Source: an uncultured Desulfosarcina sp. (GTDB lineage Bacteria > Desulfobacterota > Desulfobacteria > Desulfobacterales > Desulfosarcinaceae). From it: 64,000 bases of DNA. The notes under the pieces were generated by a model that saw nothing but the letters and a program-made list of their open reading frames with translations, ran no database searches and was not told where the DNA came from. Positions 6,325 through 28,027 of the stretch are shown one piece after another. Location of the stretch: assembly GCA_963674945.2 (NCBI GenBank), contig CAXXWQ010000002.1, positions 416,001 through 480,000 on the forward strand, in the 5' to 3' direction. The translations under genes were made by a program, and so were the position numbers. Position 1 is the first letter of the stretch; each line of letters begins with the position of its first letter.

Positions 6325-6540
6325 GGGGACAGGTACCAAATGGTTACTGGGGGCTTGGAGCATGGAGGAAGCGGGGAGCAAAAAGTGATGGGTGGTGCGT
6401 GAGTTATAAAACAACGGGGTCAGGTCTACATTCTTGACAAAACATCGTCGCCCTCATTAACACACAGATCCACACAACCCCACACGAACATTAAAAAAAC
6501 TGAAGATGGGAAGGTAAGAAATTTGGAAGCATAGAAAAGG
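6325..6540 (+). repeat. First mosaic spacer (REP-like GGGG[AT]CAGG, GAGC-heptamer, GTGATG, degenerate CACAC and AGAAG modules)
   Basis: ggggacaggtacc 6325; gcttggagcatggag; ggggtcaggtctacattcttgaca 6416-6439; gaagatgggaaggtaagaa. Confidence 0.7.
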
Positions 6541-6584
6541 CCTCTCCGCTTCCTAAGATTTTATAGGCTAAATAGAATAACGCT

Positions 6585-6985
6585 TTACAGCACTCGGGTG
6601 AACTCTGATGCCTCCCTTATGACAGATTCGATATCAGGTTTAGAAGCCGCTACAACTTCATTTATAAGGTGCTTGTGTTCAGGATGACTATTTAAATGTG
6701 GGAAATGTGGTGTGTTGTCATATCTGAAGATCAAATTATTCTGTTCATCTTGAAAATGGTACCTATAACCAAGATGCCGAATGAAATGATCTTCCGCTAT
6801 GGCTGCTTCATTCAGTTCAAGCAAGCAAGCAAGAATCCGTCAATCATGCGAATTCTCAAGCGGATATTGATCCGATCTTCGGTAAGGGCCTCCACATAGT
6901 AGGCTTCAACATATGCATCTTCAAGACTATGAATCACATCATCCAAGTCTGAAATATATTTCTCAAGAGCTGAGTTAAGCAACAT
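6585..6985 (-). pseudogene. DUF6516 (TumE-like) putative toxin, frameshifted at a (CAAG)4 tract
   Basis: ATG 6985 gives MLLNSALEKYI...GFLL, then the frame shifts to ...ELNEAA...YRYHFQD...FRYDNTPH...HPEHKH; removing 8 nt joins the frames. Confidence 0.8.
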
Positions 6986-7205
6986 GGCGAAGCTGCTTTT
7001 CCAATTTTCGATAAATCGCTAAATAATGACGATAATCATTTGCCCATTCAATAAATTCTATTGAATCATCCAGAAGCCCTTTGGAAAATTTGTCATAGAA
7101 GTCCTCGGAAGCCATCTTGTGATTTTTTTCAGACCAACTTAGGCGTTTGGAAAGTGCAACCAAAGCATCAAGGCTTGAATCATATTCAATGCGGTTTTTT
7201 TGCAT
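6975..7205 (-). CDS. Putative antitoxin partner of DUF6516 toxin (TumA-like)
   Basis: Small helical protein with SEDFYDKFSKG.LDD...FIEW motif, overlaps toxin start, RBS GGAGG. Confidence 0.7.
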   Translation of the reverse strand: MQKNRIEYDSSLDALVALSKRLSWSEKNHKMASEDFYDKFSKGLLDDSIEFIEWANDYRHYLAIYRKLEKQLRHVA

Positions 7206-7353
7206 TTGCATGGCCTCCATTTTATTTGAAAACGTCCCGAACATATTAGATCAATATATCAATAACTTACTGTGTTGTCAATTGGAGAATAATAATGGAT
7301 ATGGAACAGCTATGGGGTCAGGCAGGGTAATGAATCCGTTAAATATAATTTTA

Positions 7354-7530
7354 GCCTCTCGCAGAGTTGCAGAGAGCGCAGAGCTAAAGAACAGGTTTGG
7401 GTTGGCTTCGCCAAAAAGAGATATAAACGATTCAGCTACTTTCTTGATTTGATTTCCATCTCAGAAATCAAATGAAACTCCGCGTCTCTGTGTTCTTGAG
7501 CGAAGCGGGCGGGATGAAATAATATGGACC
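7354..7530 (+). repeat. ~176-bp MITE-like element, copy 1
   Basis: CGCAGAG-type left end and CTCCGCGTCTCTGTG...GAGCGAAGCGGGCG right end; near-identical to 7615-7790. Confidence 0.85.
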
Positions 7531-7614
7531 TTAACAGGCTATCCTCCCAAATTATCAAAGCTACTATCAATATACATAGGGAACTGGGTCCCGGATTGTA
7601 AACCAAAAGAATTG

Positions 7615-7790
7615 GCCTCTCGCAGAGTCGCAGAGAGCGCAGAGCTAAAGAACAGGTTTGGGTTGGCTTCGCCAAAAAGAGATATAAACGATTCAGCTAC
7701 TTTCTTGATTTGATTTCCATCTCAGAAATCAAATGAAACTCCGCGTCTCTGTGTTCTCGAGCGAAGCGGGCGAGAGAAATAATATGGGCC
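7615..7790 (+). repeat. ~176-bp MITE-like element, copy 2
   Basis: Direct repeat of 7354-7530 with few substitutions. Confidence 0.85.
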
Positions 7791-7791
7791 T

Positions 7792-8161
7792 AAGCCGTGG
7801 AAACCGTTTCCGGTGAAGAGATCAATGCCTTTCTGAACCGACATCTTGCAAATAGCCAACATGTTCGTACCGATGCACTGCCAGCTATGAACATTATTGA
7901 AGAAGGGTATGAACATGAGAAAAAAGTGACACCCCGGAAGAGGCTTCTAAATGGCTGCCCTTGGTTCACATTGTTATTGGAAATATGAAAACCTTTTTGA
8001 ACGGCACATTTCATGGCGTAACTCACAAATATCTCCAGGAGTACCTGGATGAATTTTGCTACCGTTTTAATCGACGCTTCTGGGAGTCCGAACTCCCATT
8101 TCGTTTGTTGAATGCCTGCATGGCTCATGCACCAGCTACTGGCTGAAAATAGTTAAGAGCC
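7792..8161 (+). pseudogene. IS1595-family (ISXO2-like) transposase 3' fragment, frameshifted, with right end
   Basis: VRTDA..., then in a second frame VHIVIGNMKTFLNGTFHGV..KYLQEYLDEFCYRFNRR; ends in ...AGTTAAGAGCC. Confidence 0.8.
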
Positions 8162-8208
8162 ATTTAAATTAATGTTCCGAAGGGCCGAAATAAGCCCCTT
8201 GTTAAAGG

Positions 8209-8613
8209 TTAATACCAATCTTCGATATTAAGCCCTCTAATACGTTCAAACTCTTTGAGATTATGTGTTACCAGGACACCTTTGTTCGCTAAGGCAGTTC
8301 CAGCAATCAATACATCATATGGACCAATTGGAGTGCCCTGTTTCTCAAGTGTCGCACGAATGTTTGCAGCACATTCTGCTTCATCTGTCCCAAAGGGAAG
8401 GATGCTGGTAATGGATAATAAGGATTGAAGCTGTTTCATACGTTCTTCAGGATAAACTGATTTGGCGATGCCGACCTCCAACTCATAGAGTGCCACTGTT
8501 GGGATTCCGATGCGATTCGGAGGATTTGCCAGCAGAGACTTAGCTACGTTCCCCACTCCTTTGAAAAAGTAAATCAGAGTATTGGTATCCAGGACATACA
8601 TGCTTCCCATCAT
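8209..8613 (-). CDS. vapC: VapC PIN-domain toxin
   Basis: YVLDTN, YELEVG, GTPIGPYDVLIAGTA, LVTHNLKEFERI. Confidence 0.92.
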   Translation of the reverse strand: MMGSMYVLDTNTLIYFFKGVGNVAKSLLANPPNRIGIPTVALYELEVGIAKSVYPEERMKQLQSLLSITSILPFGTDEAECAANIRATLEKQGTPIGPYDVLIAGTALANKGVLVTHNLKEFERIRGLNIEDWY

Positions 8614-8840
8614 ATTTTTTCTCGACTATAATCTTTGCCCATACTATCTCTAATCTCTTCAGCATTTGGCATCTCTTTCCACGCCCCTGCAAGACGTACA
8701 ACATTTTCCGGCCATGTTGTTGCGGTTTTTTCACGAATCAATTCCGCAATCCATTTGCTTTTTGACACACCGTTTTTTTCAATCATATTCAGCATTTTCT
8801 TTTCAGTATGATCGTCGAGGTAGATTGTTACTTGTCCCAT
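8610..8840 (-). CDS. CopG/RHH-type antitoxin
   Basis: MGQVTIYLDD...SKSKWIAELI; directly upstream of vapC. Confidence 0.85.
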   Translation of the reverse strand: MGQVTIYLDDHTEKKMLNMIEKNGVSKSKWIAELIREKTATTWPENVVRLAGAWKEMPNAEEIRDSMGKDYSREKI

Positions 8841-8989
8841 GCTTTCTGCTCCTTTTGAAATGCGATAAAGTATAAGTTAGCATATATGTGGTTAAAGTCA
8901 AGTTCTGTTTCTTAAGGTCAAATCGGGGTCACATTCTTGACAGAACTACCGGGGGGAAGATGTAACACCGCCGCCGAGTGGGCGGTATT

Positions 8990-9157
8990 GATTACTGTTT
9001 ACCGACCGGATCCTGAAAAATGGGTAATTGGACACAAAGGAAGAAAACATCATGAAACCTTTTGAGAAATGCCCTGTCAGATGAAGCATGTAAAAATCCC
9101 CTTGAAGGGGTCATCGGTTCAACCCTGTTGGGTAGCCCGGAATTTGTCACATTCATT
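8990..9157 (+). pseudogene. Degenerate internal fragment resembling a REP-associated tyrosine transposase (RAYT)
   Basis: KNPLEGVIGSTLLGSPEFVTFI resembles the NP...LGS..F segment of long RAYT proteins; REP-like GGGGTCACATTCTTGACA at 8925. Confidence 0.45.
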
Positions 9158-9354
9158 ATCGTATACACGATCCGGTCTTGAAAGCTTAAACGAGCAGAAT
9201 AAAAGCCTTTCAACTGTCCGACCAATTTTTTGCAGGAATAAGGTTCGTGGCATATTTGGTGCTCAAGAATATCTTTGAGTTTGGATTTCAGGCGTGGTGT
9301 GAGTTTATTCACATCTTTTAAAGATTCTTTCGTGAATCTGACTTCATACATCAA
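9155..9354 (-). pseudogene. RelE/YoeB-family toxin, 3'-truncated copy
   Basis: Matches 27312-27566 up to RIVYTI, then runs into unrelated sequence. Confidence 0.85.
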
Positions 9355-9611
9355 GATTCCCCAAAGACGTCATTCATTGAATAGGTGTCGCCATCATTCA
9401 TTTGGTTCACAGATCGGTTCAAACTTTTCAGCATGCCTGGAATTGAAAGAAGTTCAAGGGTTTCAATGAGGCTTTCATATTTTTCTTCAGAGAGCATGAC
9501 AACGGTACCTTTTGGGTGCTGAATTCGAAATATCTGGTGCTTTTCGTTGGCACCTTTCACGATTTCGAAAAAATTACGGCGGGCATCCGTTGCTGATATG
9601 TTGTTTTTCAT
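9351..9611 (-). CDS. Phd/YefM antitoxin (copy 1)
   Basis: SATDARRNFFEIV...VMLSEEKYESLIETLELLSIP; paralog of 27563-27823. Confidence 0.9.
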   Translation of the reverse strand: MKNNISATDARRNFFEIVKGANEKHQIFRIQHPKGTVVMLSEEKYESLIETLELLSIPGMLKSLNRSVNQMNDGDTYSMNDVFGES

Positions 9612-9689
9612 TCTAAACTCCAATAAAAATGTACATTATTACGTACACCATAGGCCTGTGGATGATTTTTGTCAATATTCATATTTTAT

Positions 9690-9810
9690 CTTGACCACCC
9701 TCATTTCCGGTATTTTCGAACCAGAAAGCGGTCGAGCGTTGCTCTTCCTTTACGGCATCATCTTCGAAAACGCTGTCGTAAGCATCCTTTAAACAGGTCG
9801 CTTTTTCATC
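9690..9810 (-). pseudogene. 3' remnant of RHH antitoxin paralogous to 16925-17179
   Basis: Co-linear nucleotide similarity to 16934-17053 (ttgaccaccc...cgctttttcatc). Confidence 0.8.
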
Positions 9811-9849
9811 TGCTGTCCTTTGTCCAACTGCAAGCCATATTTTTGGAGG

Positions 9850-9897
9850 TTGACATTTGTCGATAGAGTAGCTACTTTTGTCACTTAAGGTAGCTAC
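9850..9897 (+). promoter_or_regulatory. TA promoter/operator
   Basis: TTGACA at 9850 and two GTAGCTAC palindromes (9868, 9890). Confidence 0.6.
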
Positions 9898-9910
9898 AAA
9901 AGGGGGCGAA

Positions 9911-10189
9911 ATGATTCAAGCGGGCGTAAAGGAAGTGAAGAATAATTTAAGCCGCTTTTTAAGCCGGGTAAAAACGGGAGACGAAGTTTTGATCACAGAA
10001 AGGGGCAAACCAATAGCACGCATTATCAAAGAAAACTCAAAGCGAATGGATATACGTGAAGAGCTCAGGCCTTTAATTGATAGCGGTTCGGTTGTACTGC
10101 CAAGCAATAGACTGAAAAAGGAAAAGTTACGTAGTTACACGGTCCCTGGAAAGGCCGCTTCTGAAATGGTCATTGAGGATCGCAGATGA
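9911..10189 (+). CDS. Phd/YefM antitoxin
   Basis: GVKEVKNNLSRFL..VKTGDEVLITERGKPIARI. Confidence 0.9.
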   Translation: MIQAGVKEVKNNLSRFLSRVKTGDEVLITERGKPIARIIKENSKRMDIREELRPLIDSGSVVLPSNRLKKEKLRSYTVPGKAASEMVIEDRR

Positions 10190-10614
10190 TCCTGTATTTG
10201 GATACAAGTGCGCTCGTGAAAAGATACTTCCGTGAACCTCATACGGAAGAAATCATCTCACTGTGGCAAAAAGCGGATGAAGTCATTACATCATCGGTTG
10301 CGTATGCGGAAGCGATGGCGACTTTTTATAGAAAAAAGAGAGAAACCGGGATCCATGTTGATGAAATTCAAGCGATCATTAATGATTTTTCGGAGGATTG
10401 GAACTGTTTCATCCGAATTAGAGCAGATGACGAATTAAATCGATATATAAACCAGGTTACTGCCCGGTATCCACTTCGTGGATTTGATGCCATTCATCTT
10501 TCTTCAGCACTGATCGTTTTTCCGAAATTTGAAAAGGAACTGCTTTTTTGTTGCTTCGACAAACAATTGGTCGATGCTGCCGAAAAGGAAGGGCTTTGGA
10601 TTTTCCAAGGGTGA
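10186..10614 (+). CDS. vapC: VapC PIN-domain toxin
   Basis: YLDTSALVKRY, LRGFDAIHLSSA, FDKQL; ATGA overlap with antitoxin. Confidence 0.9.
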   Translation: MILYLDTSALVKRYFREPHTEEIISLWQKADEVITSSVAYAEAMATFYRKKRETGIHVDEIQAIINDFSEDWNCFIRIRADDELNRYINQVTARYPLRGFDAIHLSSALIVFPKFEKELLFCCFDKQLVDAAEKEGLWIFQG

Positions 10615-10664
10615 TTGGTGAGAAACAACAGGCTGTAGGAAGTAAGGACAGAGTGATGAGCAAA

Positions 10665-10949
10665 CTAAGACAAGGAATGGATGCTTTGCAACACATCTGT
10701 TGCTCTAATATTTCCTTTAACACCCTTTTCAGATAGCATGTCGATGGCTTCGGATATGGAAACGCCTAATTCGGTCGACACCTCTCTAATGGAGAGTTTT
10801 CCGTTTTGATATAGGTCTGCGATGTATGTTTCAAAACCGATCCTGGCAAGTTTTCGGAATGACTGGGTGCTGTCAATTTTTTCGATTCTAGACAGGAAGT
10901 TAACAGCATGCTCTATGTCTTGGGGAATCCGGATGGATTTCACTTTCAT
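10665..10949 (-). CDS. UPF0175-family putative antitoxin (copy 1)
   Basis: LYQNGKLSIREVSTELGVS; 3 aa differences from 20927-21211. Confidence 0.75.
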   Translation of the reverse strand: MKVKSIRIPQDIEHAVNFLSRIEKIDSTQSFRKLARIGFETYIADLYQNGKLSIREVSTELGVSISEAIDMLSEKGVKGNIRATDVLQSIHSLS

Positions 10950-11058
10950 GGTACCCTCCCAATCATGGTATAAACCATCGCATATTCGTCATCGCTGATA
11001 AACGGCGCCAACTGCTCGAACATCCAGATCGCCTTTTCCTGTTTGAAATGTTTCAGTG
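10946..11058 (-). pseudogene. PIN toxin remnant (5' ~360 bp deleted)
   Basis: Matches 21208-21318, then jumps directly to the upstream sequence seen at ~21680. Confidence 0.85.
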
Positions 11059-11186
11059 TTTTGTAATTATTGTATTACGCGTCGTCAACGAAAAACAAGG
11101 CAAAGGGCTCGCACAAATAGGTCGGTCTGCATTCTTGATAGGCCCCCATTATAAACTACTGCCTCACGAAAATGTCAGAGAAATGA

Positions 11187-11505
11187 TTAGCCACGGACAC
11201 ACACGGACGGGAAAACAGGTGGTAGACTATCGGCTACAGGGGGAGAGGTGAAAGCGTTGAGCCTGGCGCGTGGAACAAACAGTTATGGGTGATGAGTGAG
11301 GAACGCAGGTGGATAGGCTATAGACTGTAGGCTGTAGGAAAAGGGTTTAGATCGGATATGGGAAGGGAAATAGGATTTGGGTCATGGGCAAATAGCTTAG
11401 AGAAGGGAGCGGGGAGCAAACAGTATGGGTGATAGGAAAATTAGCTGATATCTCATAGGGGATAGCTGATAGGGTAAAAAGAAATAAGCAAGAAGCGGAG
11501 AGCGG
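11187..11505 (+). repeat. Mosaic heptamer spacer
   Basis: ttagccacggacacacacggac; ggctatagactgtaggctgtagg; gtgatgagtgagg; tagctgatatctcataggggatagctgatagg; gagcggggagc. Confidence 0.85.
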
Positions 11506-11520
11506 GTTGTCAATAAATGA

Positions 11521-11560
11521 TTGACAAAAGGCTATTGTATATCCATATATGTATATACAA
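11521..11560 (+). promoter_or_regulatory. vapBC promoter/operator
   Basis: TTGACA 11521; inverted repeat TTGTATAT...ATATACAA. Confidence 0.6.
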
Positions 11561-11582
11561 TAGCTTTTATTTGGAGAGCGAA

Positions 11583-11813
11583 ATGGATACGGCAAAAATC
11601 TTTAAAAGTGGAAACTCTCAAGCGGTTCGGTTGCCCAAAGCATATCAATTCGATGTGACAGAGGTGCAAATATTTCGAAGGGGTGATGAAATTGTTTTGA
11701 AACGTAAACCCCAGAACCTATCCAAAGCATTCGAGCTTTTAACCAGCATGTCGGATGATTTCATGGACGATGGACGTTGTCAGCAACCGTTACAGAATAG
11801 GGAGCCACTATGA
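11583..11813 (+). CDS. vapB: VapB antitoxin (AbrB/SpoVT fold)
   Basis: MDTAKIFKSGNSQAVRLPK. Confidence 0.93.
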   Translation: MDTAKIFKSGNSQAVRLPKAYQFDVTEVQIFRRGDEIVLKRKPQNLSKAFELLTSMSDDFMDDGRCQQPLQNREPL

Positions 11814-12217
11814 CGGTGATGCTGGACACTGATATTTGCATCTATACGATAAAGAAAAAACCTCGAAATGTCCTCAAACATTTTGAGAGATGCCAGCCAG
11901 GATCGGTTGTTATGTCGGTTATCACTTTTGCCGAATTGATCAATGGAGCGAAAAAGAGCCAATACGTGGAAGATAATGTTCGTCGTTTGAATGCCCTGAG
12001 TGAACTTATCGAGGTGCTTCCTTTCGAAAAAAGCGCAGCTATTGCATATGGTGATGTTCGCTCAGACCTTGAGAAAAGAGGCTTGATTATCGGTAGCAAT
12101 GATATGTTTATCGCTGCCCATGCATTGAGCTTGGACCTGACATTGGTTACCAACAACCAAAAGGAGTTTGGCCGGGTCAAAGGATTAAAAATCGAGAATT
12201 GGGTTAATGGTGAGTGA
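11810..12217 (+). CDS. vapC: VapC PIN-domain toxin
   Basis: MLDTDICIY, IIGSNDMFIAAHA, LVTNNQKEFGRV. Confidence 0.93.
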   Translation: MTVMLDTDICIYTIKKKPRNVLKHFERCQPGSVVMSVITFAELINGAKKSQYVEDNVRRLNALSELIEVLPFEKSAAIAYGDVRSDLEKRGLIIGSNDMFIAAHALSLDLTLVTNNQKEFGRVKGLKIENWVNGE

Positions 12218-12400
12218 TGAGGGGGGGAACGCAGGTGGATAGGCTATAGACTGTAGGGTTATATGCAAAGAGCATACGGCGTGGGGCTTGGAGCTTGGAG
12301 GAGAGAAACAGAAGTCAGGAATTTGGGAAAAGCAGAAATTAGGAAGAGCCAAGGCCCTTTTTTGCACCGCAGAGTCGCAGAGTCGCAGAGATCCCAGAGG
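12210..12400 (+). repeat. Mosaic spacer; 12266-12353 duplicated at 13470-13559
   Basis: gcaaagagcatacggcgtggggcttggagcttggaggagagaaacagaagtcagg...agagccaag identical in both places. Confidence 0.85.
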
Positions 12401-12421
12401 GTTATCATTTTTTGAGATAAA

Positions 12422-12742
12422 TCATGCTGCGAAAAGAATTTCACCATCACGAGCGAAATCAGTTACAAATGAATCTCCTTGCTCCCATTCCTCTTGGGTC
12501 ATTGCTATTGCTTCAATCGGTTCAAATATTTCATAAATTGCTTCTGACATAATATCAATTCGTTCCCAGTAATCTTTGCCAATGAAATTTTCAGATATGA
12601 CGATAAGGTCAATATCACTTCCTTCTTGATGGATACCGGAAACATATGATCCATAGAGTATGATTTTTGACGGGCTGATACCTTTTGCCTTAATTGCTTG
12701 ATGAAATTCATCGACTATTTTTATAACTGCTTTTTTATCCAT
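12422..12742 (-). CDS. Minimal nucleotidyltransferase (MNT)
   Basis: LYGS...SDIDL (GSX10DXD) motif. Confidence 0.9.
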   Translation of the reverse strand: MDKKAVIKIVDEFHQAIKAKGISPSKIILYGSYVSGIHQEGSDIDLIVISENFIGKDYWERIDIMSEAIYEIFEPIEAIAMTQEEWEQGDSFVTDFARDGEILFAA

Positions 12743-13101
12743 GCAACGACCTCCCTTCCCTGGGTCAGGATATCATCGACCACTGCTTTGCTATAAACTT
12801 TCTGAAGTTTAACGAGATTTTCCGGATATCGGGTAGGAATGCTGGCTTCGTTTAATTTTACGATAAACTTGCCATGGTCGGGTGACGGTTTGATACCCAT
12901 TTGGTTTAATAGATATATCAGATTGTGGGATTTAGGTGGTATTGAATGATGTTTTTCGTAATAAAGACCTTTCAACGCCTTCTCAATGGCAAGATGGCAC
13001 ATGAAAACAGCATAGATGTACCGTCCGCCATCATACATGTAGACTGCTGTGTCCATATCATAGTCAGATTGGTTCATCCATTCTATTGTCCGTTTTTCCA
13101 T
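12721..13101 (-). CDS. HEPN domain protein
   Basis: FMCHLAIEKALK, PKSHNL, TRYP; paired with MNT. Confidence 0.9.
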   Translation of the reverse strand: MEKRTIEWMNQSDYDMDTAVYMYDGGRYIYAVFMCHLAIEKALKGLYYEKHHSIPPKSHNLIYLLNQMGIKPSPDHGKFIVKLNEASIPTRYPENLVKLQKVYSKAVVDDILTQGREVVAWIKKQL

Positions 13102-13149
13102 AATAAATGATTAACAGACAAATTATTGTAAATTCAAGCAGTAATTTAT

Positions 13150-13710
13150 TGGTGAGGTAAGCAGGTGGATAGGCAATAGAAAAATAGTGGTCAGTGATGC
13201 GTAATGGATGATGCGCGAATTAGCTGATAGCTCATAGGAGATAGCTGATAGTGGTTATAGGCTTTAGGCTAAGCAAGATGACTTTCATCCATTTAGCCAC
13301 GGACACACACATATTACAGGCTATAGATTTTAGGCTGTAGGAAAATAGCGGTTAATGATCAGTCATGGGTGATGGGAAAAGGGCAAATAGCTTGGAGCGA
13401 AGAGCGGAGAACAGAAGTTAGGAAGAGCGGAGGACCGGAAGGGAAAGAGGTGATAGACTGTAGGCCGTAGGCAAAGAGCATACGGCGTGGGGCTTGGAGC
13501 TTGGAGGAGAGAAACAGAAGTCAGGAATTTGGGAAAAGCAGAAATTAGGAAGAGCCAAGACCCTTTGGTTTTGCACCGCCCTGCCTGTCCCGCCTATCGG
13601 GGCTTCGCTCGAGTCGCTGAGATCGCAGAGGGTTGTTTGTCCCCTTCGGGGAGAGTGGGGATGGGCGATAGGCCATAGACTTTAGGCTGTAGGCTGTAGA
13701 CTATAGGCGA
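13150..13710 (+). repeat. Longest mosaic spacer (nearly all repeat modules)
   Basis: gtgatgcgtaatgg, tagctgatagctcatagg, ttagccacggacacacac, ggctatag/ggctgtag runs, gagcggaga, cgcagag. Confidence 0.85.
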
Positions 13711-13729
13711 AACAGAAAACTTTATGTGC

Positions 13730-14080
13730 TTAAGCGAAACTACTTTCTTCAATACCAAAGATCGATGCAAATTTTTTTCGTGTTGCTTTTCGGTAAACAG
13801 CGTTTTGGCGTTCCCATTTGGCAATGGTTGATTGCTTTACGTTCATCCTGCGGGCGAGTTCCGCCTGCGTCCAACCCCTTTCAATACGTTCCCTTTTTAC
13901 AGGGTTCATGAAAATGTAATCTTCGGCCTCCTTGCGGTCATATAGCGATTCCGTCGCCACCGAACGGATTGCATCACAATCAGTGTCGTCTTCAATTTTT
14001 TCCAACAAACGGTTGAATTCGTCTACCGGTAATACGATGAATTTAATTTTCCCTTTTTCTTTAATGGTTTGATATTCCAT
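13730..14080 (-). CDS. XRE/HTH antitoxin (HigA-like)
   Basis: RIERGWTQAELARRMNVKQSTIAKWE; downstream of relE-like gene. Confidence 0.85.
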   Translation of the reverse strand: MEYQTIKEKGKIKFIVLPVDEFNRLLEKIEDDTDCDAIRSVATESLYDRKEAEDYIFMNPVKRERIERGWTQAELARRMNVKQSTIAKWERQNAVYRKATRKKFASIFGIEESSFA

Positions 14081-14083
14081 GAT

Positions 14084-14344
14084 TTATCCTTTGTAAATGT
14101 CTCCACGTGATCGTACCTTAACGATTTCAATTGTTAAAACATCATCATTGCGCGTGTATATGATGCGATATTTCCCCACCCTGAGTCTCCAACCGATCCT
14201 GCCTTTTGGCACAGCAGTATCGAGGTCCGGACTATCAGGGTTTTCAGCCAGGGCATGAATTTTCTCGACAATAGCGGTTTTCGATTTTAATGGGAGGCGC
14301 GCAATATAGTTTCTTGCGCTTCGCCTATATTTTAGTTCATACAT
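14084..14344 (-). CDS. RelE/ParE-family toxin
   Basis: WRLRVGKYRIIY...VRSRGDIYK. Confidence 0.9.
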   Translation of the reverse strand: MYELKYRRSARNYIARLPLKSKTAIVEKIHALAENPDSPDLDTAVPKGRIGWRLRVGKYRIIYTRNDDVLTIEIVKVRSRGDIYKG

Positions 14345-16585: not shown

Positions 16586-16586
16586 T

Positions 16587-20388: not shown

Positions 20389-20678
20389 TTAAACCACCTT
20401 GATGAAAAACCGACTTCCGTTGCCTTTTCGACCATTTTTTTATCAGGAAGGTCACCTTCTGGCGAGTAGCTGCGTAGTAAACCAAAAAGTTCATCAGTTA
20501 ATGTCCGACCCGTCTTCCTGTGCTTAGATGGCTTTAAAAGAATACCATCTTGAGAAGTGATGAACTCGATTTGGTCACCGATTTCTATGTTATACCTGCG
20601 TCTTATATCGGCCGGAATCACGACTTGTCCTTTTGGAAAAATCTTCATTTTTAGTGTCTTTCTTGCAGTTTGCGGCAT
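20385..20678 (-). CDS. AbrB/MazE/SpoVT antitoxin
   Basis: KIFPKGQVVIPADIRRRYNI..GD. Confidence 0.88.
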   Translation of the reverse strand: MPQTARKTLKMKIFPKGQVVIPADIRRRYNIEIGDQIEFITSQDGILLKPSKHRKTGRTLTDELFGLLRSYSPEGDLPDKKMVEKATEVGFSSRWFK

Positions 20679-20702
20679 CGGGCCTCTCCTTTTTTCTGCA
20701 AA

Positions 20703-20743
20703 TTGTTATACACAAAAATAAATTATGTATAACAACCTGTCAA
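20703..20743 (-). promoter_or_regulatory. TA operator/promoter
   Basis: Perfect inverted repeat TTGTTATACA...TGTATAACAA beside a minus-strand TTGACA. Confidence 0.65.
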
Positions 20744-20754
20744 GGTGTTTGTGG

Positions 20755-20915
20755 CGACAGCTGATAGGGTAAAAAGCTAAGAGCAAGGAGCGTGGAGCAG
20801 GAAGCAAACAGTGATGGGTGATGAGTGAGGAACGCAGATGGGTAGGCTATAGACTTTAGGCTGTAGGAAATTAGCTGACAGCACAGAGCCTATAGCTGGG
20901 AGTTTAGAGTGTAGA
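20755..20915 (+). repeat. Mosaic spacer
   Basis: 20810-20870 closely matches 11280-11341 and 23780-23834. Confidence 0.85.
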
Positions 20916-20926
20916 GATCACTTCAA

Positions 20927-21211
20927 CTAAAACAAGGAATGGATGCTTTGCAACACATCTGCTGCTCTAATATTTCCTTTAACACCCTTTTCAGATAGCA
21001 TGTCGATGGCTTCGGATATGGAAACGCCTAATTCGGTCGACACCTCTCTAATGGAGAGCTTTCCGTTTTGATATAGGTCTGCGATGTATGTTTCAAAACC
21101 GATCCTGGCAAGTTTTCGGAATGACTGGGTACTGTCAATTTTTTCGATTTTAGACAGGAAATTAACCGCATGCTCTATGTCTTGGGGAATCCGGATGGAT
21201 TTCACTTTCAT
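20927..21211 (-). CDS. UPF0175-family putative antitoxin (copy 2)
   Basis: Near-identical to 10665-10949. Confidence 0.75.
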   Translation of the reverse strand: MKVKSIRIPQDIEHAVNFLSKIEKIDSTQSFRKLARIGFETYIADLYQNGKLSIREVSTELGVSISEAIDMLSEKGVKGNIRAADVLQSIHSLF

Positions 21212-21678
21212 GGTACCCTCCCAATCATGGTATAAACCATCGCATATTCATCATCGCTGATAAACGGCGCCAACTGCTCGAGCATCCAGATCGCCTTTTC
21301 CTGTTTGAAATGTTTCAGCGTAAACAGTTTGTAGATAATCACGGCGGGTAATATGAACGGTATACCGTTTGTAGCGAGCCGTTTTGCCAGTTTGGCATCG
21401 TCTGTCCCGACAGCATCATGCAGTGACTTATCAAATAATCCCACGAGTGCATCGTCTCCCTTGCCACCCTCTTCTGTATTACCGAAAACACTTATTGTTT
21501 CAGCCAATATGTTATTTTCGACGACGAAAGCGTCTTCACAACCTTTTTTCTTGCCGGCGTCAACAACCTCAACTTTGACAGCATGTGGAATTGAGATTGC
21601 ACAAAAGGAGGCGACAACTTCTTTCAAACCGGCTTTTGTAAGTTTTATCAGGCAGTCGGCATCCATCAATATCTTCAT
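21208..21678 (-). CDS. PIN-like (DUF3368-type) putative toxin
   Basis: LMDADCLIKL, V..EVV, GKGD, GTDD acidic PIN pattern; ATGA overlap with UPF0175 gene. Confidence 0.7.
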   Translation of the reverse strand: MKILMDADCLIKLTKAGLKEVVASFCAISIPHAVKVEVVDAGKKKGCEDAFVVENNILAETISVFGNTEEGGKGDDALVGLFDKSLHDAVGTDDAKLAKRLATNGIPFILPAVIIYKLFTLKHFKQEKAIWMLEQLAPFISDDEYAMVYTMIGRVP

Positions 21679-21819
21679 GTGTTAGATTGTAATTATTGTA
21701 TTACGCGTTGTCAACGAAAAACGAAGCAAGGGGGGCGCACAATTAGCTCGGTCTGCATTCTTGTCAGGCTCTGCTATAAATTTCTGCCTCACGAAAAAGT
21801 CAGAGAAATGATTAGCCAC

Positions 21820-21870
21820 CCCAGTTAAATTCGCTTCGCTTTTCACTATCGTGAATGTAACGGGATAGAC
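21820..21870 (+). repeat. ~51-bp palindromic mini-element inserted in the TTAGCCAC module
   Basis: CCCAGTTAAATTCGCTTCGCT...GTGAATGTAACGGGATAGAC; second copy at 41679-41730. Confidence 0.75.
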
Positions 21871-22079
21871 AGACCCATTCGGAAGGACACGGACAATATA
21901 GGTGATAGGCTATAGGCTGTAGGCGATGGGTAATGAACGAATGCTGAAGGCCGCCAATTCGCTCAATTTTTAAATTGGGAACAGTTGGGGTAGGTTAACC
22001 TAAGCAGTATCGGTACAAATATATATCGGATTTTAAATTTGAAAATTAAGATTAGCTTTTTTTCATCCTGTCCGTTTGA

Positions 22080-23003
22080 ATGAAGAATTCCTATTGTCAT
22101 TGCATCATAAAGGCTTCAAAAATATTTATATTTTTAAGTATTTTTGTCTTTCAATTTGTTTTGATCCAGACATTCAGTGACGTAGCCTTGGCTTATTTGA
22201 CCGTTTCCACAGAAAAAAGACTCATTAAAAGCATTGTACCTCATTCAAAAGATATCCCTGTTTCTGCATCGCACCTTCTTGAAATATGCGGTGATGATAC
22301 AAAAGATCCATCCATATACAGTGGCAATGTAAATTATCCAAACAACAAAACATTATTTTGCTATCTGCCCATTCCCGAGGTCGTTACAAGGCAAATGGAT
22401 CGATATGTCGCCTCGGAATTCAGCATTGAAAATCTGTTGTATGCCAACCTCAAAATTGAAAGGTTAATGAGAGAATACGATGACCTTGAAAAGAGAAGTC
22501 ATGAAATTTTAGAAGGGCTGGATGTACCATTTATCCATGGTGTAGAGTACGAACAACTGTTGCAGCAAAAAGCATCTTTCGTTACCCTTGAAATCGATCG
22601 TGTTACCGAACAGTCCAACTTCATCGCCGGTCCGGAACTGGTTTATGCAACACAAAATAATTCAACTGGTTCAAGAAAACCAATTGCTGCAAAGAAGACC
22701 TTCGGGTCGACACATCGGTTTCGATTCGAGAAACCAGGTGTCAGTTTATCGACCGGATCATCGGTAACCCGTGGATCCTCTCATAAATCCAATGATGCCA
22801 ATCATTCACAGCCGGAATTCGATGCATCCGAATCAAAAAATATACAGTATGGGGTTGATTCAAAGGATCAGTTGCCTCGGCTGATCAGAGTCCTGAGATC
22901 ATTATTCAGATATCTGTTTGAGAATAAAATCGAGGCGGTTTTGTATATCATTTTGATTTACGGTATTGGTCATTTGGTGTTTTCTGCGCGTGGTAAGGGC
23001 TAA
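22080..23003 (+). CDS. Hypothetical protein with N-terminal signal/TM segment and C-terminal membrane anchor
   Basis: 307-aa ORF; hydrophobic N- and C-termini with basic tail; no recognised motif. Confidence 0.6.
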   Translation: MKNSYCHCIIKASKIFIFLSIFVFQFVLIQTFSDVALAYLTVSTEKRLIKSIVPHSKDIPVSASHLLEICGDDTKDPSIYSGNVNYPNNKTLFCYLPIPEVVTRQMDRYVASEFSIENLLYANLKIERLMREYDDLEKRSHEILEGLDVPFIHGVEYEQLLQQKASFVTLEIDRVTEQSNFIAGPELVYATQNNSTGSRKPIAAKKTFGSTHRFRFEKPGVSLSTGSSVTRGSSHKSNDANHSQPEFDASESKNIQYGVDSKDQLPRLIRVLRSLFRYLFENKIEAVLYIILIYGIGHLVFSARGKG

Positions 23004-23170
23004 TTGGTGATGGGGAAATAAGCTGATAACTCATAGGCGATCGCTGATAGGACACGGATGATGATCGAAGGGAAAAAATGAATTATTGTTTTGCCACGGA
23101 CACACACAGACGCACACGGACAAAAGAAAAAGCAGTAAATTTTACATTTCAGTATGGGATACAGGCAAAC

Positions 23171-23325
23171 CTTATCGATAGGCCCGGCTGCGATGGTGAG
23201 CGCCAATCATGAAAACAATGTTTTCCTGCTCGTCAATTTCGTAGAAAAATCGCCATGAACCGATACGATAACGCCATGTTGGCGGTGTAAAATTTTTTAG
23301 TTTTTTTATGTTGGAACCGTAATGG
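23171..23325 (-). pseudogene. RelE-family toxin 3' half (frameshifted)
   Basis: HYGSNIKKLKNFTPPTWRYRIGSWRFFYEID... then a +1 shift to IVFMIGAHHRSRAYR*. Confidence 0.8.
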
Positions 23326-23455
23326 TGACCGTTCCCGAATACTGATTGTTGATATCATTCGATATGATGACAACTGGCCTGGTTTTGGCGATTTCCCGCC
23401 CCAGTGTCGGATCTAATGAGGCCAGATGAATCTCCCCCCTTTTAATATCGGTCAT
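23306..23455 (-). pseudogene. MazF/PemK toxin 5' half
   Basis: KRGEIHLASLDPTLGREIAKTRPVVIISND, stops after 49 aa. Confidence 0.85.
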
Positions 23456-23693
23456 CCCATCCCTCCAAATCGATGACATGAAATTCATCTGCCATATCAA
23501 GGCTTTCTGTATTACAGGCGCGATACCCTTCAGCGAGTTGCTTTTCTAGTTCTGTTTTTCTATCTTGCCCAATCTTGAAGCGAATGGCGTCGGCGATGAA
23601 TGAACTCCGTTTTCTTGGGCCTGATATGGAATCCACCAATTGGATTAATTCTTTCGGTAGGGTGATATTAATGCGTACATTTTCTACGTTCAT
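23442..23693 (-). CDS. RHH/CopG antitoxin
   Basis: RINITLPKEL...KRSSFIADAI...LAEGY. Confidence 0.85.
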   Translation of the reverse strand: MNVENVRINITLPKELIQLVDSISGPRKRSSFIADAIRFKIGQDRKTELEKQLAEGYRACNTESLDMADEFHVIDLEGWDDRY

Positions 23694-23759
23694 AAGTTCG
23701 CCCCTTTTTTGTGACATATTGTGTGTAAAATAATGTGTCAAATTGTGGTGAGTGTCAAG

Positions 23760-23945
23760 AGCTTAGAGCGGAGAGTAATCAGTGATGAGTGAGGAAAGCA
23801 GGTAGATAGTCTTTAGACTGTAGGCTGTAGGAAATTAGCTTATAGCTCATAGGGGATAGCTGATAGGGTAAAAAGCATTGAGCCTGGAGCTGGGAGCAAG
23901 CAGTGATGGGTGATGCGTAATGAGTGATAGGAAACAGGTGGTGTG
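23760..23945 (+). repeat. Mosaic spacer
   Basis: GAGC, GTGATGA, GGCTGTA and TAGCTGA modules in the same order as 11259-11478. Confidence 0.85.
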
Positions 23946-23949
23946 ATAC

Positions 23950-24369
23950 TTATGACTGCAGACTATGGGGTATGGTTTCTGTCACAAAACCTGGAAAACG
24001 CTTTTGAAGTTTTTTATCAAAACTGAAGAGATTTTTAGCCCCATAGTTTTTTGCTTGTTCTACAATTAACAGATCAGCAAAATCACCACCATTTACATAT
24101 TGCTGGGCAGCCTTACGAATCGCTGTCGAGTCGGGAAGGGAAAAAACCGGTGCGGATAGAAGGTTTCCCATGAACATCGAAATTTCTTCACGGTTGCATT
24201 GATAAACAGATTCAAGAACCCATACGGTTTCAATAATCACTTCTGTCAGAAGCAACAGCTTTTTCCCGTTGGCTTCAGCAATATCAATAATTTCTTGTGC
24301 TTTTTTTGCCTGACGTTCATCATCTTCAACCAGCACCCTGACAATGGCGTTGGTATCGAGTGCAATCAT
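23950..24369 (-). CDS. vapC: VapC/PIN toxin
   Basis: IALDTNAIVR, ETVWVLES, DFADLLI, FSFDK. Confidence 0.9.
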   Translation of the reverse strand: MIALDTNAIVRVLVEDDERQAKKAQEIIDIAEANGKKLLLLTEVIIETVWVLESVYQCNREEISMFMGNLLSAPVFSLPDSTAIRKAAQQYVNGGDFADLLIVEQAKNYGAKNLFSFDKKLQKRFPGFVTETIPHSLQS

Positions 24370-24620
24370 TTCGCCGCCCGTTGAAGACGTCTTTTCTGAA
24401 TTTCATTTTCCATCTGGTCAAGAGAAACTATCCGTTCTTTCTTTCTATGTTTTAACATTCCAAAAATAGATGATCCCGATCTTTGTTCTTTCGTAACAAG
24501 GACCTTCCCATCCTCAATTGGAGTGAAGACAAGCTTCTCAGAAGTTTCGATATTAAGAAAATCTCTGATTTTTTTGGGAATTGTTATTTGTCCCTTGGAT
24601 GTTACAGTTCCTGTTTCCAT
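24366..24620 (-). CDS. AbrB/MazE/SpoVT antitoxin
   Basis: TVTSKGQITIPKKIR; upstream operator TCCTTAC..GTAAGGA 24645-24664. Confidence 0.9.
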   Translation of the reverse strand: METGTVTSKGQITIPKKIRDFLNIETSEKLVFTPIEDGKVLVTKEQRSGSSIFGMLKHRKKERIVSLDQMENEIQKRRLQRAAK

Positions 24621-24933
24621 AGTCGTTCTTTTCTGTTTTAAATTTCCTTACATGTTGGTAAGGATATCAGCGCGACCTGCTATTGTCAATGGTGATTGGG
24701 GAGGGCAAAGGGTGATGGGCTGTAGGAAAAGAGCATGGAGCTGGGAGCGTAAAAATTTTTTGCCACGGACACACACGGACTGACACGGACGAGGTTTTTA
24801 TTAGCCTTCGGCTGGAAATGATTCACCGCCCACTTCGTTAAAATTACAGTGATCGCAAAGGTTTGTTTGTCCCCTTCGGGTAGAAAAACATTACATCTCT
24901 ACGAGCTTTGCGTCTTTGTGGTGAAAAATAACA

Positions 24934-25070
24934 TCATAGATAGGCTTGGCAGCGGGGATGCGTGCCAATCATGAAAACAATTTTCTCCAGTTCTTCAATT
25001 TCTTAGAAAAACCGCCATTAACCTATACGGTATGCCACGTTGGAGGTGTAAAATTTTTTAGTTTTTTTTA
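24934..25070 (-). pseudogene. Second degraded copy of the RelE 3' half
   Basis: Co-linear with 23171-23308 (gccaatcatgaaaacaat...ggtgtaaaattttttagttttttt). Confidence 0.75.
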
Positions 25071-25147
25071 GGACAGGATTAACAAGATCGACATGGTTAT
25101 TTCGCCACGGGCGAATAAAACTCCTTTTTGCATTCCAGTATCTTCTT

Positions 25148-26119
25148 TTATATGTTTGCCTGGTAAACGGCAGTACGTTTATCTCCGGTTTTTTTTAGAA
25201 GCTCCAATTTAACTCCATGTTGCAGGTCGCGACTGGCTGTAGCTGTGGAAATTGTTTTAAATAATGCTTGGTATGCTTTTCGTGTAAAAAAATCTGCACC
25301 GAACGAGTCGATCGCCAGATTCAACCTGTCTATGGAAGTAAGCATCACGGATCGCGTTGCGGTCATTAACTCATGAAGCGCATCTATGATGAGGCGTAGC
25401 ATCAAAATGACAAAACCGGTGCAGTCACCTGAATCATCACCCGTGGCCAATTCCCGATAATAGTCATCTTGGCGGGCTTTGATGAAATCTTCAACTGGAA
25501 GATACTCAAAGATGGGATGATATACCATCAATAACCGGGTTTGCCATAGCCTTCCCATTCGGCCGTTACCATCAATAAACGGATGAATGTACTCCACTTG
25601 GTAATGAAACCGGCAGGATTTTATAAGCCAATGATCATCACTGCTTTTCAGATAGGTGAAAAGACTCTGCATCATGGATGCAACGTTTTTCCAGGAAGGA
25701 GACTCATGAAATATATCACCTGGCCGCATTACCCCAATGGGACCGGTGCGAAATGTACCCGATGATGGAATTAGATCCTCCATCAACATCTTATGCGCTT
25801 TCAGGAATGAGGAGATCGACAAGGGCGCAAGTCTTTCGATGGACCGATAGGTGCGAATGGCATTTTGAACTTCCAAGATATCCTGCTTGGGACCGATAAC
25901 CCGTTTTTCATCGATCAGACTTGTCACCTGTTCACGAGTTAACGAATTACCTTCGATGGCAAGGGACGACTGGATCGTATGGATACGGTTTTTTCTCTGT
26001 AGCATAGGGCTTGGCCTGCGCAGTTTGACCCCTTCCAACTGGCCGATTTGTTCTGCGATGCCGGTCATCAGGTTAATTGCTTTTGGAGTTGTCCGGCAGG
26101 TATGCATTTTATGCTTCAT
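25148..26119 (-). CDS. Fic family protein
   Basis: HPFIDGNGRMGR catalytic motif; SLAIEGN inhibitory helix; perfect 20-bp palindrome upstream (26172-26191). Confidence 0.92.
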   Translation of the reverse strand: MKHKMHTCRTTPKAINLMTGIAEQIGQLEGVKLRRPSPMLQRKNRIHTIQSSLAIEGNSLTREQVTSLIDEKRVIGPKQDILEVQNAIRTYRSIERLAPLSISSFLKAHKMLMEDLIPSSGTFRTGPIGVMRPGDIFHESPSWKNVASMMQSLFTYLKSSDDHWLIKSCRFHYQVEYIHPFIDGNGRMGRLWQTRLLMVYHPIFEYLPVEDFIKARQDDYYRELATGDDSGDCTGFVILMLRLIIDALHELMTATRSVMLTSIDRLNLAIDSFGADFFTRKAYQALFKTISTATASRDLQHGVKLELLKKTGDKRTAVYQANI

Positions 26120-26367
26120 TTCCGTGATCTCACTGTTGTTCGTCCAGAAATAGCTTTTACAGCGGATATTTATAGTATCATATGATACTATCATGTCAAG
26201 TATGCGTTTTTTCGAATTCATAGGGGGCGCATCTTAATTATAGACATTTCTGGTGAGAAGAGCTTGGGGCATGGAGAAGGGAGCGGAGAACAGAAGGTAG
26301 GAAGTTGGGAAGAGCAGAAGGGCGGAAAAGCTATTTTGATATTCCACCGCAAAGGCCTTAATTGCAC

Positions 26368-26632
26368 GAAAGGGCTTTCTGCCATCGATAGCCATTCCTT
26401 GATGTCTATTTTCAGGATGAGTCTCTTTTTTGCTGCCAGTAATGCCATTTCCCAGACACTGATGCACGATACATAAATACTATCGTTTTTTACCGCTTTT
26501 TCTATATGTTCGCTGGCTGTTTTGGACAGTAAATCCGGGTTGCTGAGAAACCAGATCCAAACGTGGGGATCCATTACGATCATTTCAGAGTTTCCCAGTC
26601 GTCAAGACCAATCGGCGCAAACGGATCGATAT
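26368..26632 (-). pseudogene. Remnant antitoxin 3' end plus 3'-truncated VapC
   Basis: ...PIGLDDWETLK* overlapping MIVMDPHVWIWF...ISVWEMALL...EWL, then runs into spacer repeats; same family as 41987-42612. Confidence 0.75.
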
Positions 26633-26636
26633 TGCA

Positions 26637-26670
26637 TTGAGTCTCATATGAATATATTATTGAGACTCAA
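26637..26670 (+). promoter_or_regulatory. TA operator
   Basis: Perfect inverted repeat TTGAGTCTCA...TGAGACTCAA just before RBS GGAGG. Confidence 0.65.
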
Positions 26671-26684
26671 AGGGAGGTCATTAG

Positions 26685-26972
26685 ATGAAATTTTTAAGTG
26701 TAAGAGAGCTAAAATCCAAATCGGCAAAGGTTTGGAAAGAGTTACCCAGTCAGAAAGAAATGATCGTGACCAGCAATGGCAGGCCTATTGCCATGCTTTC
26801 TTCTATAAATGAAGATAATCTCGAGCAGGTATTAAATGCATTTAGAATTGCAAGAGCAACCAATGCAGTGGCTTCGATCCAATACGAATCGGCAGAACAA
26901 GGGACGGATAAAATTTCTATGGAGGAAATCGAAGTTGAAATCCAAGCAGTAAGATCCAGCCGAAAACAATGA
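26685..26972 (+). CDS. Phd/YefM antitoxin
   Basis: MKFLSVRELK...IVTSNGRPIAML. Confidence 0.88.
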   Translation: MKFLSVRELKSKSAKVWKELPSQKEMIVTSNGRPIAMLSSINEDNLEQVLNAFRIARATNAVASIQYESAEQGTDKISMEEIEVEIQAVRSSRKQ

Positions 26973-27310
26973 AAATTGTACTGGATACAAATGCACTTGT
27001 TTCTGGTCTGCTCACGCCATTTGGTTCGAGCGGCGAGATCGTTCGAATGGTTTTTTCAGGTGAACTTACGTTGTTTTTGGATGCTCGGATATTATCCGAG
27101 TACAAAGATGTTTTGCAGCGTCCAACATTTTGTTTTAACAAGGAAAATGTTGCGACCTTGATTGATTTCATAAAATATTTCGGGCGTTTCGTTTCGAGTT
27201 CACCATTAAGAGATCGGTTGCCGGATCATGACGACGAACCATTTCTCGAAGTGGCCATTGCCGGTGATGTAAATGCCTTGATTAGTGGAAATATCGTTCA
27301 TTACTTTTGC
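26969..27310 (+). pseudogene. PIN-family toxin (TIGR00305-like), apparently 3'-truncated
   Basis: IVLDTNALVSG, EY.DVL.RP, PDHDDEPFLEVA, ISGN..H; no stop of its own, reads on antisense into the relE gene. Confidence 0.7.
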
Positions 27311-27311
27311 A

Positions 27312-27566
27312 TCAGTCACCATAATGGGTCCTTGCCCTATGTATGTAGACCTTATGGTTATCTTCGTCAATTGTATACACTATTCGGTCTTGAAAGCTTA
27401 AACGAACAGAATAAAAACCTTTTAATTGACCAATCAATTTTTTGCCGGAATAGGGTTCGTGGCATAGTTGGTGCTCAAGAATATCTTTGAGTTTGGATTT
27501 CAGGCGTGGTGTGAGTTTGTTCACATCTTTTAAGGCTTCTTTCGTGAATCTGGCTTCATACATCAA
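27312..27566 (-). CDS. RelE/YoeB-family toxin (intact copy)
   Basis: GKKLIGQLKGFYSVRLSFQDRIVYTI...RTHYG. Confidence 0.9.
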   Translation of the reverse strand: MMYEARFTKEALKDVNKLTPRLKSKLKDILEHQLCHEPYSGKKLIGQLKGFYSVRLSFQDRIVYTIDEDNHKVYIHRARTHYGD

Positions 27567-27823
27567 GAATCCCCAAAGACGTCATTCATAGAATAGGTAT
27601 CACCATCATTCATTTGGTTGACAGATCGGTTCAAACTTTTCAGCAAGCCTGGAATTGAAAGAAGTTCAAGGGTTTCGATGAGGCTTTCATACTCTTCTGC
27701 AGAGAGCATGACAACGGCACCTGTAGGATGCTGAATTCGAAATATCTGGTGTTTTTCGGTGGCCCCTTTCACGATTTCGAAAAAATTACGGCGGGCATCC
27801 GTTGCTGTTATATTGTTTTTCAT
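27563..27823 (-). CDS. Phd/YefM antitoxin (copy 2)
   Basis: Close paralog of 9351-9611. Confidence 0.9.
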   Translation of the reverse strand: MKNNITATDARRNFFEIVKGATEKHQIFRIQHPTGAVVMLSAEEYESLIETLELLSIPGLLKSLNRSVNQMNDGDTYSMNDVFGDS

Positions 27824-28027
27824 TCTAAATTCCTATGAAAATGTACACTATTCCGTACAGGATAGGCCTGTGGATGATTTTTGTCAATATTCAAGTTTTG
27901 AAAAGAATAAATCAGCCACAGACCCACACAAATTACAGACTATAGGCTGTAGGCTGCAGAAAATTAGCTGAGAGGTCGTAGGTGATAGCTGATAGGACAT
28001 GGATGATGATCGAAACAAAAATTTGAA

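Follow-up and report, generated by a model that had tools for sequence, protein, structure and literature searches.

A toxin-antitoxin array between co-oriented heptamer-repeat spacers at an exopolysaccharide locus of an uncultured Desulfosarcina

Results

The array and its units

In the 64,000-nt window analysed here, positions 416001-480000 of contig C2 in the genome assembly of an uncultured Desulfosarcina sp. (G000; 7.08 Mb in 4 contigs), an array of predicted toxin-antitoxin (TA) units lies downstream of a GT4 glycosyltransferase gene, the last gene of an exopolysaccharide (EPS) block, and upstream of TPR, VanZ and PEP-CTERM genes. The inventory, drawn from Pfam and NCBIfam scans of 61 window proteins together with translations and a six-frame reading of the broken pairs, comprises 18 units between window positions 6585 and 27823 (Table 1), namely 17 TA pairs and a Fic gene, in good agreement with the roughly 18 TA cassettes over about 21 kb that a sequence-only reading of this DNA had counted. 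As judged from family matches, the putative functions are TumA-TumE, eight PIN/VapC pairs with AbrB-, Phd- or RHH-type partners, two YefM-YoeB pairs, RelE-HTH, two RHH-MazF pairs, HEPN-MNT and Fic, with an extra pair that is missing most of its PIN gene. The units stand in both orientations, as had been noted, with 14 of the 18 encoded on the minus strand, opposite in direction to the EPS genes. Twelve pairs are intact and five have a broken toxin; decay has been toxin-first, the damaged gene being the toxin in 5/5 and the antitoxin frame remaining intact in every case.

Several other early impressions were upheld in whole or in part. The proposal that many units have their own TTGACA promoter and palindromic operator stands for the promoter, as an exact TTGACA lies within 110 nt of the first start in 12/18 units (2.6% expected), but operators are clear at some units only (VapB 11583, Fic and AbrB 24620). 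Diverged copies 10-18 kb apart do occur, as two pairs: 10663-11059 and 20925-21321 are 10 kb apart and 97% identical, and 9158-9687 and 27370-27899 are 18 kb apart and 92% identical. The description of the array as almost entirely TA modules fits its 18 units but overlooks a 2.5-kb multi-copy IS66, an IS1595 remnant, a 307-aa non-TA gene, about 6 kb of spacer and the five broken pairs. Between the units lie further remnants of DUF4258/YgiT-like (identified by eye), RHH and PIN genes and two RelE-type 3' ends.

The array makes up 0.3% of the genome and accounts for 7 of the genome's 27 PF01850 matches and 35 of its 64 TA-like genes, the latter count being biased upward as the profiles were seeded from the array itself. 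It is a TA island, with an excess of TA pairs that belong to several classes and lie close together. A search of public sequencing runs listed four that contain this DNA, all from one study and none of them RNA. Contigs from two public runs of one sample, which may be the source sample of the assembly, are identical to 13530-16531 and 23845-27497, and the array is therefore no assembly artefact in those parts.

Spacers are polar mosaics of repeat arms

The spacers between units are mosaics of about ten families of 7-9-nt repeats. A spacer-blind detector found 16 tracts of period 7-9 in the array against the ~1.1 expected from the genome average, and these tracts are polar: on the plus strand 15/16 are G-rich and none is C-rich, as compared with 12 G-rich and 9 C-rich tracts over the remainder of the locus (Fisher p=0.005). 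The minus strand, which carries most of the TA mRNAs, is C-rich in all spacers except one. Sharing of sequence follows the same direction, with at least 14 exact nt common to 36/171 spacer pairs in direct orientation and to 0/171 in inverted orientation, and exact direct repeats of 89 nt and 32 nt bracket the HEPN-MNT pair and the next VapBC pair, respectively.

The same repeats are found around genes of another kind. Elsewhere in the genome, four-helix-bundle (4HB; TIGR02436) genes have the TAGGCTG, TAGCTGA and AGAAG-type modules as their upstream (left) arms, a CCACGGAC module flanks the genome's GxxExxY gene, and 4HB and GxxExxY genes bordered by these arm families are also present in other parts of the array's own locus. 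Nine of the genome's ten 4HB matches, and likewise its single GxxExxY gene, are in two repeat-rich loci of C2, and matches to the arm motif cluster at C2:349-459 kb, with a few at C2:633-672 kb and elsewhere. Both this clustering and the excess of tracts in the array fit the earlier expectation that the repeats would not be spread evenly over intergenic DNA. The array has no small gene between inverted arms, the layout of a 4HB or GxxExxY cassette, and it has a single right arm, split by IS66. At five loci in five other genomes with the exact arm motif, a 4HB gene is beside one and a TA gene beside none, and the arms are therefore not TA-specific. No Rfam match was found within 5000-31000.

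A number of structures in or among these repeats deserve mention in their own right. A hairpin element of ~52 nt sits in the CCACGGAC arm directly after GCCAC at 21820-21870 and 41670-41740, and its insertion point is where the alignments of relatives end. Many gene-less inverted pairs of CCACGGAC arms, REPIN-like in form, lie between EPS genes at G000:C2:363000-382100. About 30 perfect TATCAGC repeats occupy 30169-30410, and a 160-nt stretch with the same lead-in (96%) is found 96 kb upstream beside a PIN gene (G000:C2:349714-349873). Four 4HB matches lie in the second repeat-rich locus, G000:C2:615956-640139, along with long right arms of the form (TCCTGGC)n.

Single units are shared between species in other orders

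Among relatives, sampled as one genome per species, 40/60 match some part of 9000-28000, many of them via IS66. In 20 stretches from nine same-genus genomes the same TA units recur at 55-90% amino acid identity in other orders and with other neighbours, often near VanZ, TPR, PEP-CTERM, 4HB or GxxExxY genes, and the arrays of four relatives (Pfam scan of 123 frames) add HicAB, BrnT, HepT-MntA, DUF433 and DUF2442. Exchange is unit-wise: single units in different species are 93-98% identical in nucleotide sequence over 520-1130 bp amid different neighbours, and self-promoted TA units pass between species as pieces of ~650-800 bp. Content and order vary between species, as the sequence-only reading had anticipated, and they do so at the orthologous site as well; a clear ortholog of the GT4 gene, present in 1/30 relatives (G004), is followed by a different set consisting of RelE, MNT, DUF2442, RHH-MazF and two RAYT-like genes, with 18/18 spacer matches at that site in the same polarity. 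Orientation is kept, relative to a host marker, in 24/27 orthologous units, a count in which kin are not independent and to which 47 others lacking a marker do not contribute. Arrays of other heptamer families can also be polar, with 16 G-rich and 1 C-rich of 20 tracts in G022 and 10 and 0 of 10 in G013.

The 307-aa protein is probably a host gene of the locus, since its homologs adjoin a TPR gene in 2/30 relatives (G009 and G020). The flanks of HEPN-MNT outside the Desulfobacterota gave no skew signal (11/33 and 12/32), and a single query of viral contigs for a phage vector, made with the RelE partner, returned HTH-domain matches only (19 loci, 0 full length).

Unit ends are ragged

Homology between units begins at the -35 box and ends close to the stop codon. 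For RelE-HTH it extends 0-27 nt past TTGACA in 63 pairwise comparisons, with a weak tendency to extend farther where the two members of a pair are closer (rho 0.30, from comparisons that are not independent). A fixed cut at the -35 hexamer is excluded, as the extension varies over this range and sense units end there too. No core sequence common to unit junctions was found. Within the array, repeat-guided events are best indicated by the 89-nt and 32-nt repeats and by one duplicated unit, the homology of which extends into an arm. Among the X3 contigs, one departs from the window inside the MNT gene (12648) and one inside a spacer (14585). The earlier idea that the spacers are landmarks for recombination survives in part: polar arms and varying order favour it, but the ends are variable, the junctions have no core and the arms also flank non-TA genes, and a role for the spacers as a specific recombination site is not supported.

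The array is cassette-like and is not an integron

Polar delimiters, variable unit order and kept orientation are integron-like traits, a resemblance in behaviour only. The absence of attC sites, claimed from the start, held up in three kinds of scan. A strict scan of the array gave 0 hits; a lenient one gave 21, as compared with 15-37 in five shuffles, all in coding DNA or weak and none centred on a spacer; and a covariance model built from five short attC sites of contig C3 (the alignment of all eight candidates was too poor) recovered its own five sites and one held-out site (E 3e-4) but no site in either the window or C2:340-416 kb. No G/TT crossover core was found at unit ends. That there is no integrase is true of C2, where no tyrosine recombinase (PF00589) matched, but not of the genome, as an intact IntI is encoded at C3:2206329-2207270 (470 bits, cut-off 265) with ~8 attC-like hairpins upstream. 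The array behaves like a cassette array and is not an integron; a dedicated enzyme is hypothetical. The region C3:2174795-2207270 constitutes a complete chromosomal integron, with two reverse transcriptase (RT) fragments and an IS66 inside, and a truncated intI with a PIN gene is found at C4:3239062. A reverse-transcriptase route to the array was considered and set aside, the genome having only three RT fragments, none on C2.

A RAYT-like gene in related arrays

The arrays of relatives contain a Y1/RAYT-like gene of ~311 aa, always sense to the locus, of which the genome studied here has one open copy (G000:C2:668685-669629). Its NF047646 score is 55 bits against a cut-off of 80, and relatives' copies score 48-58. 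The open frame contains HFH and YIDLNP, candidates for the HUH motif and the catalytic tyrosine, and the protein is a predicted HUH transposase. We inspected 46 homologs, picked among 78 loci because their flanks were usable; in 39 of them GGGACAGG lies within 130 nt upstream, near the gene's own TTGACA, and nothing is conserved past the stop codon. A TA pair or other cargo is found between motif and gene at L192, L193, L194, L202 and L227, at the own copy and at both G004 copies. Over all 78 loci, a TA gene is within 6 kb in 27, a 4HB or GxxExxY gene in none and a periodic tract in 26. In the window we found a 3' remnant at 16302 and, weakly, another at 14388, and a weak 5' motif at 6321, exactly at the start of the region marked out by the sequence-only reading, with E values of 0.09-0.56 in the motif search; the 3' remnants each adjoin the -35 box of an antisense TA unit, as is likewise seen in G022, G025 and G010.

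The family is multi-copy and has a single conserved 5' end (GGGACAGGT, then TTGACA), of which tandem copies occur. A mini-element of ~80 nt is present in G022 (L011:4260-4342), the own RAYT-like region is G000:C2:667644-669629 (L187), and further loci are L192-L269.

Discussion

The array is a new variant of TA island for which the mechanism is a proposal. Given its polar arms, unit-wise exchange, variable order, kept orientation, ragged ends and toxin-first decay, we would give an even chance to the explanation that the 3' end of the EPS/PEP-CTERM operon is a safe-harbour hotspot, at which transferred TA units are shuffled via co-oriented arms and kept by addiction. Incoming or duplicated units would be flanked by arm sequence, and arms of like orientation would recombine over short homologies to insert, duplicate and reshuffle them, perhaps through the host's RecA-type or homology-facilitated illegitimate recombination acting on donor DNA that arrives by transformation or other transfer; ComEC is present in the genome. 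Recombination of this kind could leave the polarity of arms and the direction of units unchanged with no need of a dedicated site, deletion may then trim units back to the -35 box and stop codon, and addiction could act as a ratchet, non-addictive cargo being lost while TA units persist until the toxin gene breaks.

Several observations weigh against recombination between arms as the source of the array. Most of the exact stretches that spacers share measure 14-43 nt, little for RecA to work on. Similarity between neighbouring spacers barely exceeds that of randomly chosen pairs (p=0.053, with two pairs driving the difference), deletions inside the array have junctions outside repeats, and among the closest pairs of units some ends are in arms and others at the stop codon or promoter. 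No credible excised or joined form of 8101-28100 was found in contigs, the candidate joints being short-sided and compatible with paralogous repeats. As the plus strand is the sense strand of the locus and probably also the leading strand, these effects on polarity are inseparable. Nor is polarity universal, the G-rich and C-rich tracts being 10/20 in G009, 4/15 at the main locus of G004 and 7/7 in G018, with the G015 array also mixed; the flank skew of RelE-HTH in other genera is weak (16/25 upstream, 17/23 downstream).

It is tempting to ask whether an enzyme builds such arrays. A RAYT-like HUH (Y1) transposase could do so if its GGGACAGGT..TTGACA-ended elements captured TA pairs and shed the transposase gene, the captured units being mobilised in trans by an intact copy such as the one on C2. 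HUH chemistry on single strands is polar, the gene is present in relatives' arrays in the sense of the locus, its 5' motif is widely conserved with TA cargo between motif and gene in several cases, and RAYT ends occur in the window, as the 5' motif at 6321 and the 3' remnants at 16302 and 14388, the latter two beside antisense -35 boxes. Most array units have no RAYT end, however, unit ends vary, the remnants are weak, and the neighbourhoods of the 78 homologs are mostly without a TA gene and entirely without 4HB or GxxExxY genes, so that we find this account rather doubtful. An unlikely extension of it is a dedicated, integrase-free system of the Desulfobacterota, in which the RAYT-like enzyme would capture self-promoted TA units in trans and insert them at EPS operon ends, where arm stacks would serve as polar sites of landing, giving arrays of superintegron size by single-strand chemistry. 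One may equally dispense with guidance altogether and regard the array as a passive pile-up of selfish mini-elements (4HB, GxxExxY, RAYT-like, IS66, IS1595 and TA units) that landed independently in neutral DNA at operon ends, with arms as leftovers that are polar because left arms come after the stop codons of sense genes. The arms around non-TA genes across the locus, the insertion of IS66 and IS1595 in spacers, the many unit ends outside arms, the lack of TA genes at the five other arm loci and the existence of mixed-family TA 'islands', as presented in the parts of PMC2701414 that we consulted, all agree with this, but it leaves unexplained the near-identical direct repeats either side of single units, the duplicated units with homology into arms, the fixed orientation and the arm stacks downstream of minus-strand units; we judge it unlikely.

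Two further explanations carry far less weight. The arms might be kept for a role at the RNA level, for instance as C-rich tracts that terminate transcription on the TA strand or as insulators of the EPS transcript, with polarity reflecting selection and not how insertion took place. The C-richness of nearly all spacers on the minus strand and the translational control proposed for TAACTGA repeats (MacGregor, 2015, PMC4679880, as far as consulted) would agree, but the same arms occur at sense-oriented units and arm families vary by species, which makes such a role very improbable. A cluster of attC sites lacking an integrase (CALIN), once served by the C3 IntI and now with decayed sites, is largely refuted by the negative attC scans and the lack of a GTT core at unit ends; the intact IntI in trans and the self-promoted TA cassettes typical of large integrons, as described in the consulted parts of PMC13108822, raise its chances barely above nil.

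Among the known systems that resemble the array, the 4HB and GxxExxY (TIGR04256) arm cassettes share its arm families and its locus, but the array has almost only left arms and, in place of an intact 4HB or GxxExxY gene, TA units. Cyanobacterial STRR are another class of intergenic heptamer repeat, and the pdif modules of Acinetobacter plasmids are, like the units here, small, often TA pairs and shuffled between repeats, with XerC/XerD sites separating the modules. A crude test for the XerD-arm, with an 11-nt motif and one mismatch allowed, gave 0 matches in the array. Closely spaced TA pairs of different classes were described as 'islands' by Makarova et al. (2009, PMC2701414), who, in the text we consulted, left open 'preferential incorporation' or cassette transfer; the array shares this composition and adds a visible landing-site anatomy of polar arm stacks at EPS operon ends and an interspecies exchange that can be traced unit by unit. 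The integron of V. cholerae has 19 TA cassettes according to the consulted portion of PMC13108822, and by the same partial source sedentary chromosomal integrons and CALINs resemble the array in how many self-promoted TA units they hold, in having polar delimiters and in their shuffled order and fixed orientation, whereas the array has no attC, attI, nearby IntI or fixed crossover point, is almost without non-TA cargo and has as delimiters mosaics of several repeat families. For the intergenic TAACTGA heptamers, which precede start codons and for which translational control was proposed, the searched parts of PMC4679880 contain neither 'toxin' nor 'four helix'. In the portions consulted of the work describing RAYT/REPIN groups (Bertels et al., 2017, PMC5581495), a Y1 HUH-type gene likewise stands beside short repeats; the family here matches NF047646 below cut-off and differs in being multi-copy, with one conserved end and TA passengers. 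In what was seen of PMC8934634 GxxExxY is mentioned once, beside an RT. Literature outside subscription journals and supplements yielded no paper that links TA arrays to heptamer arms, 4HB/GxxExxY or RAYT.

The locus offers a concrete and testable answer to the question of preferential incorporation versus cassette transfer in TA islands, and a possible role for long-unexplained intergenic heptamer repeats, which would act as polar pads where modules in horizontal transfer land. Integron finders miss cassette-like arrays that lack attC, so that current counts of the class may be too low. Were the RAYT-like enzyme the engine, it would represent a second, unrelated chemistry for building gene-cassette arrays.

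Other features of the locus

Table 1. Features of the array and its borders, in window coordinates.
Position	Strand	Feature	Basis or remark
5207-6307	+	GT4 glycosyltransferase, last gene of upstream EPS block, left anchor	Family scans; G004 ortholog precedes a different TA set
6308-6584	+	First spacer, G-rich arm mosaic	
6321-6345	+	RAYT-like 5' end motif (GGGACAGGT...), weak match	E 0.56 genome-wide, genome's second best
6585-7244	-	TumA intact, TumE frameshifted	
7351-7791	+	CGCAGAG-type repeat element, tandem duplication, 97%, 261-nt period	
7790-8146	+	IS1595-family remnant	Family scans
8209-8840	-	VapBC pair	Partner without family match, putative from position and relatives
8992-9687	-	YefM intact, YoeB truncated	92% copy of 27370-27899
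9878-10614	+	Phd-PIN pair	Family match
10665-11194	-	UPF0175 intact, PIN gene internally deleted	Copy of 20925-21819
11077-11516	+	Spacer, five arm families	
11583-12217	+	VapBC (Leptospira-type) between 32-nt exact direct repeats	
12218-12421	+	Spacer; 89-nt exact repeat common to next spacer	
12422-13101	-	HEPN-MNT pair	Family match
13102-13729	+	Longest spacer, 628 nt, arm mosaic	
13730-14344	-	RelE-HTH pair	~650-bp unit found across Desulfobacterota
14766-15430	+	AbrB-PIN pair	Family match
15636-16264	-	AbrB-PIN pair	Family match
16302-16352	+	RAYT-like gene 3'-end remnant, then CCACAGA/CCACGGAC arm	83% over 52 nt, E 7e-6; weak in second search
16587-17179	-	RHH-MazF pair	Family match
17373-19866	-	IS66, multi-copy, 8-nt target duplication	Within the array's one right-arm tract
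19987-20678	-	AbrB-PIN pair	Family match
20927-21678	-	PIN-UPF0175 pair	Weak family matches
22080-23003	+	307-aa protein	No family match
23150-23741	-	RHH intact, MazF truncated, RelE-type 3' remnant	Second copy of remnant at 24930-25068
23950-24620	-	AbrB-PIN pair	Family match
25148-26120	-	Fic gene	Own TTGACA and palindromic operator
26685-27312	+	Phd intact, PIN_3 gene	3' end cut by next unit
27312-27823	-	YefM-YoeB pair	Family scans
28028-29075	-	IS1595, multi-copy, 8-nt target duplication	Within last spacer
30169-30433	+	Right-arm tracts past array: (TATCAGC)n and reversed CCACGGAC arm	

Beyond the array, a 4HB remnant with a TAGGCTG-type left arm lies at 35620-35784, and a further PIN gene (42223-42588) stands between left-arm stacks after a plus-strand gene. 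The minus strand at 43434-51368 encodes an RHS/YD-repeat protein of 2644 aa with carboxypeptidase-regulatory-like and DUF6531 domains.

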